From the NCBI RefSeq assembly GCF_030013205.1, contig NZ_CP122648.1: DNA of 64,000 nucleotides; one strand, given 5' to 3'. Of the stretch, positions 27,869 through 29,095 are shown piece after piece. Source of the stretch: Escherichia coli (GTDB taxonomy: Bacteria > Pseudomonadota > Gammaproteobacteria > Enterobacterales > Enterobacteriaceae). Below the pieces are notes generated by a model, which saw only the letters and a program-made list of their open reading frames with translations, was not told the DNA's origin and ran no database searches. The number at the start of each line of letters is the position of its first letter. The first letter of the stretch is position 1. The position numbers were made by a program, and so were the translations under genes.

Positions 27869-29095
27869 TTATCTCACCAGCTTTTCGGCACGCTGGTGTT
27901 TGGCCTGATACATATTGTGATCGGCCAGCTCTTGTAATTTTTCCGCAGAAGCGTGCGCAATGGTCATTGCGTAACCAATGCTTAATGTCATGGTGGTCTG
28001 ATGGCCATTATGAAGATCAAACGGGCGATTAAAGATTTGTGTCAGTGCTGAGCATATCTGCTGCACTTCAGATTCCGACTGTACATCATAGAGCACCATC
28101 GCGAATTCATCGCCGCCCAGGCGGTATGCTTTATGTTGCAGCCCGCCAAATTCAGCTAACCGTTTTGCGATTTCAATCAAGACTCTATCGCCCGTCGCAT
28201 GACCCTAGGTATCATTGATATATTTGAAATTATCGCCATCAAGAAATAGTAACGCCGACGTTTTTCGGGCATCGGAACTGTTCATCAACGTGTTGATACC
28301 GCTACGAAACGCTGCGCGGTTAGCCAGCCCGGTTAATGGGTCATGTAGTGCGGTACGTAGAAGCTGCGCATTTTTGGCCTGTAAACGAAGCTGCCACTCT
28401 TCCATTTCATCCAGCAGACTGTTGAAGTCGAGAGCGAAGCGGTGAAACTCTGCGATACGTTCTTCCGAAACTCGTCGGGAAAAATTGCGGTTGGAACGCA
28501 CATCATGTACGACATCGGTGATGTTTTTTAACGCTTCAACCAGACCATTGTGCAAATGGCGGGTGAGGGTAATTGCGATGCCTGATGCCAGCAGAATGCA
28601 GGCGGTCAGGACAGCGAGCGAAAACCAGATGAAATGGCTGATTGAACTGTCGCGAGCGGTTAAGCGAACTTCGCCAATGGTTTCACCATTGTGACGAATC
28701 GGCTGAACGATGGGGGCAGGGAAGAGCCAGTGGCTTATGAAATTACTGAAAGTATCGCCTGGATCCTTACGGGTGTAATGCCAGGATGCCAGAATATTTT
28801 GCTGCTTATCACGCACTTCTGCAGTTGAAAATTGGCCTTGCTGCCCCAGCGCTGCCAGTGTTTCAGTTGCTGCAGAGCCATCGGCAAAAACGACCGCTGC
28901 TTCCAGACTGTAAGTCATTGTTGCTGCTGTCAGTGCCAGGTTTTTTTGCGCGTACTGTTTCAGGGTCAGCACCGAGGTCACGGAAAGCAGCAACCAGATC
29001 AGCATCATAGTGATAAATATGCTGGTCATACTGATGTTGCGTAATGCTCTTTTAAACGTGGGGCGCTTATTAAGAGAATTATCGTTATCCATCAT
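27869..29095 (-). pseudogene. dgcN: Diguanylate cyclase DgcN (YfiN), interrupted by an in-frame amber codon just upstream of the GGDEF domain
   Basis: N-terminal ORF 28205-29095 (296 aa, ends ...FLDGDNFKYINDT*) and in-frame continuation ...GHATGDRVLIEIAKRL...YRLGGDEFAMV... (27869-28180). Stop codon TAG at 28205-28207, within a CCTAGG site, falls inside the conserved IND-x-GH motif. Confidence 0.8.

Follow-up and report, generated by a model that had tools for sequence, protein, structure and literature searches.

A 64,000-nucleotide stretch of Escherichia coli DNA (contig NZ_CP122648.1; hereafter the window) carries the YfiBNR locus, in which the diguanylate cyclase gene dgcN (yfiN) is interrupted by an amber codon at codon 297. 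We conclude, with a probability of about 0.86, that this is a genuine loss-of-function allele of a swine-associated lineage and that it arose from one C-to-T transition, most likely by deamination of 5-methylcytosine (5mC) at a Dcm methylation site. The argument rests on the identity of the allele in independent genomes, on the exact base that changed, on the recurrence of the same change on different dgcN haplotypes, and on a comparison with all other transition-type nonsense changes in the same gene.

The plus strand reads gaccCTAggtatc (cta) at positions 28205-28207, which gives TAG on the minus strand, where the dgcN frame runs from an ATG at 29095 to a TAA at 27869. Translation of its 408 codon positions gives codon 297 as the lone internal stop, flanked by LFLDGDNFKYINDT and GHATGDRVLIEIAKRLAEFGGLQHKAYRLGGDEFAMV (FKYINDT-stop-GHATGD), with RLGGDEF further along the same frame (residues 325-331). 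This bears out an earlier description made from the letters of the window (the sequence-only reading), which had noted an otherwise intact 408-codon frame with a TAG at 28205-28207 in an IND-x-GH motif and the GGDEF active site still in frame downstream. The stop lies inside the GGDEF domain, 30 codons ahead of the active site. The same reading took the interrupted position for an aromatic residue; the position is conserved, but it is hydrophobic rather than strictly aromatic, with L (P. aeruginosa TpbB/YfiN, INDRLGH) or Y (INDTYGH) in solved GGDEF structures. It also placed the stop within CCTAGG, correctly (28204-28209), but missed that this context has a Dcm origin in which the methylated cytosine mutated. 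In the restored protein, Pfam identifies CHASE8 at residues 45-146 (E 1e-33) and GGDEF at residues 249-403 (E 5e-43). The gene order yfiR-dgcN-yfiB is kept, with all three genes on the minus strand and with rplS-trmD-rimM-rpsP and yfiL-aroF-tyrA as further neighbours. What the window lacks for a DgcN is a single uninterrupted polypeptide with a complete GGDEF domain.

The TAG is a real and heritable mutation. Positions 20000-44000 of the window match E. coli ETEC4079 (NZ_CP122643.1; isolated from pig faeces in Belgium) with 100% identity, and in the record of this strain window position p corresponds to p + 1,215,725 (28206 to 1,243,931). The RefSeq annotation made by the Prokaryotic Genome Annotation Pipeline (PGAP) labels dgcN of ETEC4079 as a pseudogene with an internal stop, as it does in the O139:H1 strain W13-16. 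Seventeen complete genomes share the 1,227-nt dgcN sequence with 100% identity; every one of them comes from swine or wild boar, and the sources include France, Japan and Belgium. Because of this identity and the annotated internal stop, the TAG is no chance break of an open reading frame. The next-best dgcN matches, ST2747 and EFF60, show a single mismatch at gene position 890, where they have TGG instead of TAG (CCTGG to CCTAG on the coding strand). The ancestral codon, which the sequence-only reading had wanted settled by comparison with other E. coli dgcN genes, is hence TGG. At the protein level, the exact 296-residue product is found on 116 public contigs (NCBI, ENA, Logan) and related 296-residue products on 612, 36, 8, 5 and 2 contigs, giving approximately 780 contigs in total with products that end at W297.

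The lesion is a C-to-T change on the plus strand at 28206, which turned CCAGG into CTAGG and codon 297 from TGG into TAG. CCWGG is the Dcm recognition site, and its inner C is the methylated base. In the TGG siblings the coding strand has CCTGG, corresponding to plus-strand CCAGG; the site was therefore an ancestral CCWGG and the mutated base is its inner cytosine. Since the change is of the inner C of CCAGG to T, the most likely cause is 5mC deamination. Spontaneous deamination to thymine at 28206 would have escaped Vsr very-short-patch (VSP) repair, the classic route to amber hotspots. The T:G mismatches in CTWGG/CCWGG that are substrates of this repair come from 5mC deamination (PMC2715241), and a passage in PMC10710837, citing Cherry 2018, treats CCWGG sites as deamination-prone in natural enterobacterial populations. 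At the same codon, one bovine strain (F3_13_1_3) has TGA instead, through a G-to-A change at gene position 891, opposite the outer, unmethylated C. The only other CCTAGG in the window (8407-8412) lies in a type I restriction-modification methylase (M subunit) gene, and CTAG as such is approximately 14-fold depleted (18 observed versus about 250 expected), which is typical of E. coli.

The same TAG is found in several parts of the species. We searched 5,426 complete E. coli genomes with an allele-specific 55-mer probe, in which the variant base is central so that each 28-base seed must include it, and found the allele in 36 genomes. These are the 17 swine genomes, nine O121:H19 genomes, the mouse isolates M8, RSHH22 and SK6988 (Switzerland, Germany and Sweden), three US water or sediment isolates, 2017.06.05CC (Vietnam), E-93 (China), EC21GDE043, and one O157:H7 genome only (BB24-1). 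All carriers that were fetched (W13-16, ETEC4079 and 11 non-swine genomes) are annotated with an internal stop. At least six dgcN haplotypes, 8-41 sites apart from one another, carry the TAG, and for three of these there are TGG siblings without any difference at the 1,226 remaining positions: ST2747 and EFF60 for the swine type, at least 22 genomes for the M8 type, and four genomes for the O121 type. Counted in this way, from gene haplotypes and not from a whole-genome phylogeny, at least six E. coli lineages acquired the TAG independently, and repeated mutation is a much simpler account than spread.

The gene itself provides a control for mutation bias. Five Dcm (CCWGG) sites lie in dgcN, but deamination of the inner C gives a stop at two only, W105 (gene position 314) and W297 (position 890). 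A second probe set covered all other transition-type nonsense changes (38) on 12 haplotype backgrounds, using 51-mers in shuffled order, with spacers that mismatch all 12 known haplotypes and zero wild-type 28-mers. This set returned 12 nonsense alleles in 34 genomes. The other Dcm inner-C change, W105 TAG, is present in five genomes on two haplotypes, and its 104-residue product is found on 549 public contigs. The non-Dcm alleles are stops at Q85 (seven genomes), W157 (six), Q86, W34 (as TGA) and Q366 (three each), Q239 (two), and W34 (as TAG), Q47, Q99, W297 (as TGA) and Q401 (one genome each). In total, the two Dcm sites among the 39 transition-type nonsense targets hold 41 of the 70 affected genomes (36 + 5) and about 8 of 19 backgrounds (at least 6 + 2), compared with 29 genomes and about 11 backgrounds for the 37 other targets (binomial P of about 2e-6, approximately 13-fold per site). 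When the count is restricted to clades reported by two or more laboratories, the excess remains (P of about 1e-4). As selection should not distinguish between stops that precede the active site, the excess at Dcm sites points to mutation bias in this set of genomes.

As for the protein, translation would stop within the GGDEF domain, so that the sensor and membrane anchor are kept and the catalytic half is lost. The 296-residue product covers positions 1-49 of the 161 of the GGDEF profile, and the GGDEF motif (residues 327-331) lies beyond the stop. Membrane insertion and display of the periplasmic domain should still be possible for this product, but not c-di-GMP (cyclic di-GMP) synthesis, and the YfiR-DgcN-YfiB module would no longer be able to make c-di-GMP through DgcN. 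The nearest in-frame restart candidate, a TTG at codon 306, would give a 103-residue piece with GGDEF profile positions 60-159 only. The truncation argues for loss of DgcN enzyme activity, in line with the proposal of the sequence-only reading that a single-base nonsense mutation, now identified as TGG to TAG, inactivates DgcN of the YfiBNR module. Passages in PMC4992967 and PMC10127611 describe DgcN activity as c-di-GMP production under reductive or envelope stress, followed by growth and division arrest; both outputs should be lost, because both depend on DgcN activity. The 336 untranslated nucleotides before yfiB could also permit Rho-dependent polarity. Both yfiR and yfiB are intact and each is one base apart from the TGG sibling ST2747, which indicates a recent event without wider decay. 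The single yfiR substitution, A87V, is specific to the TAG lineage, being absent from both ST2747 and the common M8-type allele. The other TGG sibling, EFF60, has a yfiB that is annotated with a frameshift, so in this close relative the module is damaged at another gene.

Amber suppression of the stop is not supported. The sequence-only reading had put forward a site needing amber suppression as its second option, together with a check for supE- or supF-type suppressor tRNAs. In ETEC4079, the tRNA-Gln genes, found through the synteny of their tRNA cluster, have the wild-type anticodons UUG, UUG and CUG. This cluster (metT-leuW-glnU-glnW-metU-glnV; record positions 3,579,330-3,579,921) holds three tRNA-Gln genes, two UUG and one CUG; K-12, for comparison, has four, with glnX and glnV both CUG. 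Given the single CUG copy in ETEC4079, a supE-type change would remove its sole CAG-specific tRNA-Gln. In the window we found no tRNA genes, only ssrA. Probes for supF, supC, supB, supD, supP and su7-type single-step changes, covering alleles of tyrT, serU, leuX, trpT and glnU, matched only OV2 and DSM 498 among the 5,426 genomes, and neither is a TAG carrier. As a positive control, supE gave 158 matches, those listed being K-12 laboratory strains (among them DH5alpha, C600 and DH1), and the probes also picked up a supF strain. In no TAG carrier did we find a canonical single-step suppressor allele, a statement that does not extend to suppressors carried by plasmids or phages at other places in the genome, which were not scanned. 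Nor is the in-frame stop conserved among orthologues, given its presence in 36 of 5,426 genomes.

Three other explanations would remove either the mutation, its recurrence or its effect. Nanopore base-calling errors are known to cluster at CC(A/T)GG motifs (PMC6703438), and miscalling at 5mC-modified Dcm motifs would also look recurrent. However, these errors alter the central base of the motif, with A read as G or T read as C (PMC6703438), whereas the change in dgcN is of the inner C to T. The allele is also coherent within clades (17 of 17 genomes of the swine haplotype and nine of nine O121 genomes, from different laboratories, with TGG in the siblings), the exact truncated proteins occur on hundreds of contigs that include assemblies of public read sets, and 135 intact CCWGG sites remain in the window. 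A sequencing error in particular was ruled out by the 17 identical genomes, the 116 contigs and the wrong error type for Nanopore, and we regard a sequencing or assembly artefact of any kind as having a negligible chance of being correct. A single origin of the TAG followed by short-patch homologous recombination into other haplotypes is conceivable, given that the region around position 890 is conserved, that tracts of 50-420 bp are common to the TAG haplotypes and that a conversion tract could be very short. Yet it would require at least five separate transfers of tracts of <50-185 bp without a flanking marker, and every tested haplotype has TGG siblings identical at the other 1,226 positions. 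The W105 amber, at the other Dcm site, is likewise on two haplotypes, and 0 of 11 non-Dcm nonsense alleles have probe patterns that suggest more than one background. We therefore consider recombination highly unlikely. Readthrough or suppression with continued production of full-length, functional DgcN, by amber suppression or leaky termination, finds some encouragement in Shigella flexneri, where over-expressing dgcN, which there has its stop at codon 120, increased c-di-GMP and yielded a band the size of the full-length protein, for which the authors suggest readthrough (PMC11327459). Homologues tolerate L or Y at residue 297, and the downstream frame of dgcN is intact. On the other hand, a recent mutation would be expected to leave the downstream frame intact, the first third of the GGDEF domain would be missing from a restart product, and the stop is not conserved. 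The tRNA-Gln anticodons of ETEC4079 are wild type with one CUG copy only, the window has no tRNA genes, non-supE suppressor alleles occur in two unrelated strains among all genomes searched, and the listed supE matches are K-12 laboratory strains. Continued production of active DgcN is thus very improbable.

A different question is whether dgcN loss is selected. In addition to the nonsense alleles, dgcN is broken by IS1 and ISApl1 insertions (HCP6S3_I1, NT1N31, NT1N34 and L9) and frameshifted in ES5; with 13 distinct nonsense alleles, the insertions and the frameshift, the gene is a frequent inactivation target in E. coli. Loss is evidently tolerated in several niches and may be favoured. The recurrence of the TAG could accordingly reflect selection for DgcN loss in niches such as the pig or mouse gut and Shiga toxin-producing E. 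coli (STEC) O121, with the Dcm site supplying the commonest knockout route. The many inactivation routes (12 other nonsense alleles in 34 genomes, the frameshift and both types of insertion) speak for this, as do the host association and spread of several TAG clades (17 swine genomes, nine O121:H19 genomes and three mouse isolates from three countries), and a benefit of loss is plausible given that, according to the passages cited above (PMC4992967, PMC10127611), DgcN activity arrests growth and division. However, selection would be expected to favour any stop ahead of the active site to much the same degree, so that the Dcm excess needs a mutational bias, and neutral decay would look the same. 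We therefore hold a selective cause of the recurrence to be possible but doubtful; it complements the origin by Dcm-site mutation and does not replace it. A further and clearly more speculative idea, which we consider improbable, is that the CCTGG codons W297 and W105 make up a rudimentary on/off switch of the YfiBNR module that is both heritable and reversible and whose off state is enriched by selection in particular hosts. Deamination of 5mC that VSP repair fails to correct would turn the switch off. It would be turned on again by Vsr-stimulated conversion of CTAGG to CCAGG, which a passage in PMC2715241 states as previously shown, or in part by leaky readthrough of the amber codon, with S. 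flexneri dgcN as a precedent. For this idea the present data consist of repeated forward events only.

Some points weigh against the conclusion that deamination at a Dcm site produced an inactive dgcN repeatedly. The count of events rests on gene haplotypes, and two of the backgrounds, O157:H7 BB24-1 and EC21GDE043, are each represented by one genome. Probe sensitivity is tied to the available haplotypes, so that divergent backgrounds (for example B2) are perhaps under-counted, at all sites alike. The support for Dcm is the presence of dcm-vsr in 5,367 of the 5,426 complete genomes (98.9%), a count that is not of ETEC4079's own locus and is indirect both for this strain and for methylation of the dgcN site. 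The loss of activity is deduced from the domain truncation, and the raised c-di-GMP from over-expressed Shigella dgcN, with its earlier stop (PMC11327459), makes some leakiness conceivable.

Table 1 Features of the dgcN locus in the window.
Feature	Coordinates	Strand	Remarks
dgcN (yfiN) pseudogene	27869..29095	minus	408-codon frame with one internal amber; PGAP locus QDW55_RS06040 in ETEC4079
Amber TAG, codon 297 (ancestral TGG, Trp)	28205..28207	minus	Sole difference from the intact ST2747 and EFF60 alleles
Former Dcm site, ancestral CCAGG, now CTAGG on the plus strand	28205..28209		Mutated base 28206 (C to T)
Still-translatable 5' part, 296-residue product	28208..29095	minus	N-terminal transmembrane segment, periplasmic CHASE8, second transmembrane/linker region, first ~48 GGDEF residues
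Untranslated 3' part of dgcN, 336 nt, in frame	27869..28204	minus	GGDEF active-site motif at 28103-28117
Second stop-prone Dcm site (codon W105, gene position 314), CCAGG on the plus strand	28781..28785		Intact in the window
yfiR, periplasmic repressor of DgcN	29085..29603	minus	Intact; one lineage-specific substitution, A87V
yfiB, OmpA-like outer-membrane lipoprotein partner	27371..27853	minus	Intact; start 352 nt downstream of the amber codon

Elsewhere in the window, positions 1-15400 form an integrase-bearing island beside ssrA (transfer-messenger RNA, 15523-15885). The island carries the type I restriction-modification system, with a frameshifted R subunit (2878-6116) and intact S and M subunits, along with a recombinase, IS1 in two copies, two ParB-like genes and an alpha-amylase gene that is truncated. 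Beside pheA/pheL lies an integrated P2-family prophage, which extends from 34046 to beyond 50000, with an integrase (34046-35035), a replication endonuclease (38679-41504), portal, terminase and capsid genes, and ParM-like segregation genes (41581-42859). The latter suggest that the prophage may also be capable of plasmid maintenance.

The dgcN finding leaves known principles unchanged. One envelope/reductive-stress input to c-di-GMP signalling is genetically off in ETEC4079, which matters for the reading of biofilm, motility and division phenotypes in isolates of the porcine enterotoxigenic E. coli (ETEC)/O139 type and of O121:H19. Beyond these isolates, dgcN offers an internal control that separates mutation bias from selection and illustrates that methylation hotspots shape pseudogene alleles in natural E. 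coli. The same single-nucleotide polymorphism (SNP) in unrelated lineages is homoplasy and not shared ancestry, and such sites should be masked or handled carefully in SNP phylogenies. In the literature we found no earlier report of the W297 TAG allele of dgcN or of its recurrence; dgcN appeared there as an "extended-core" gene in one pan-genome paper only.

The dgcN of the window is an ordinary loss-of-function pseudogene, already annotated as such, and a clean natural example of an established hotspot mechanism. It shares with the functional DgcN/YfiN proteins of YfiBNR systems (TpbB, AwsXRO) the locus yfiL-yfiR-dgcN-yfiB by rplS/aroF, the CHASE8 and GGDEF domains and a nucleotide identity of 97-100% to annotated dgcN, but its polypeptide ends at residue 296, before the active site, and RefSeq treats it as a pseudogene. 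The degenerate cyclases of Shigella flexneri (dgcN with its stop at codon 120, dgcE and dgcQ; PMC11327459) are similar in that a nonsense mutation has hit the same gene in a pathogenic lineage and left the downstream frame intact. The Shigella stops, however, precede the GGDEF domain, where an internal start or readthrough can yield a whole catalytic domain, whereas the stop in the window splits the domain, so that only true readthrough could restore activity. The third comparison is with lacI, whose classic amber hotspots are CCAGG sites, reportedly described by Coulondre et al. in 1978 and by Lieb in 1991. Those hotspots belong to a laboratory reporter, whereas the dgcN alleles are fixed in wild lineages, lie in a chromosomal signalling gene and depend on dcm by deduction. 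The likeness is otherwise close: the ancestral sequence is CCAGG, the inner C has become T to give CTAGG and an amber codon, and the change recurs in dgcN far more than nonsense changes at the non-Dcm sites of the same gene.

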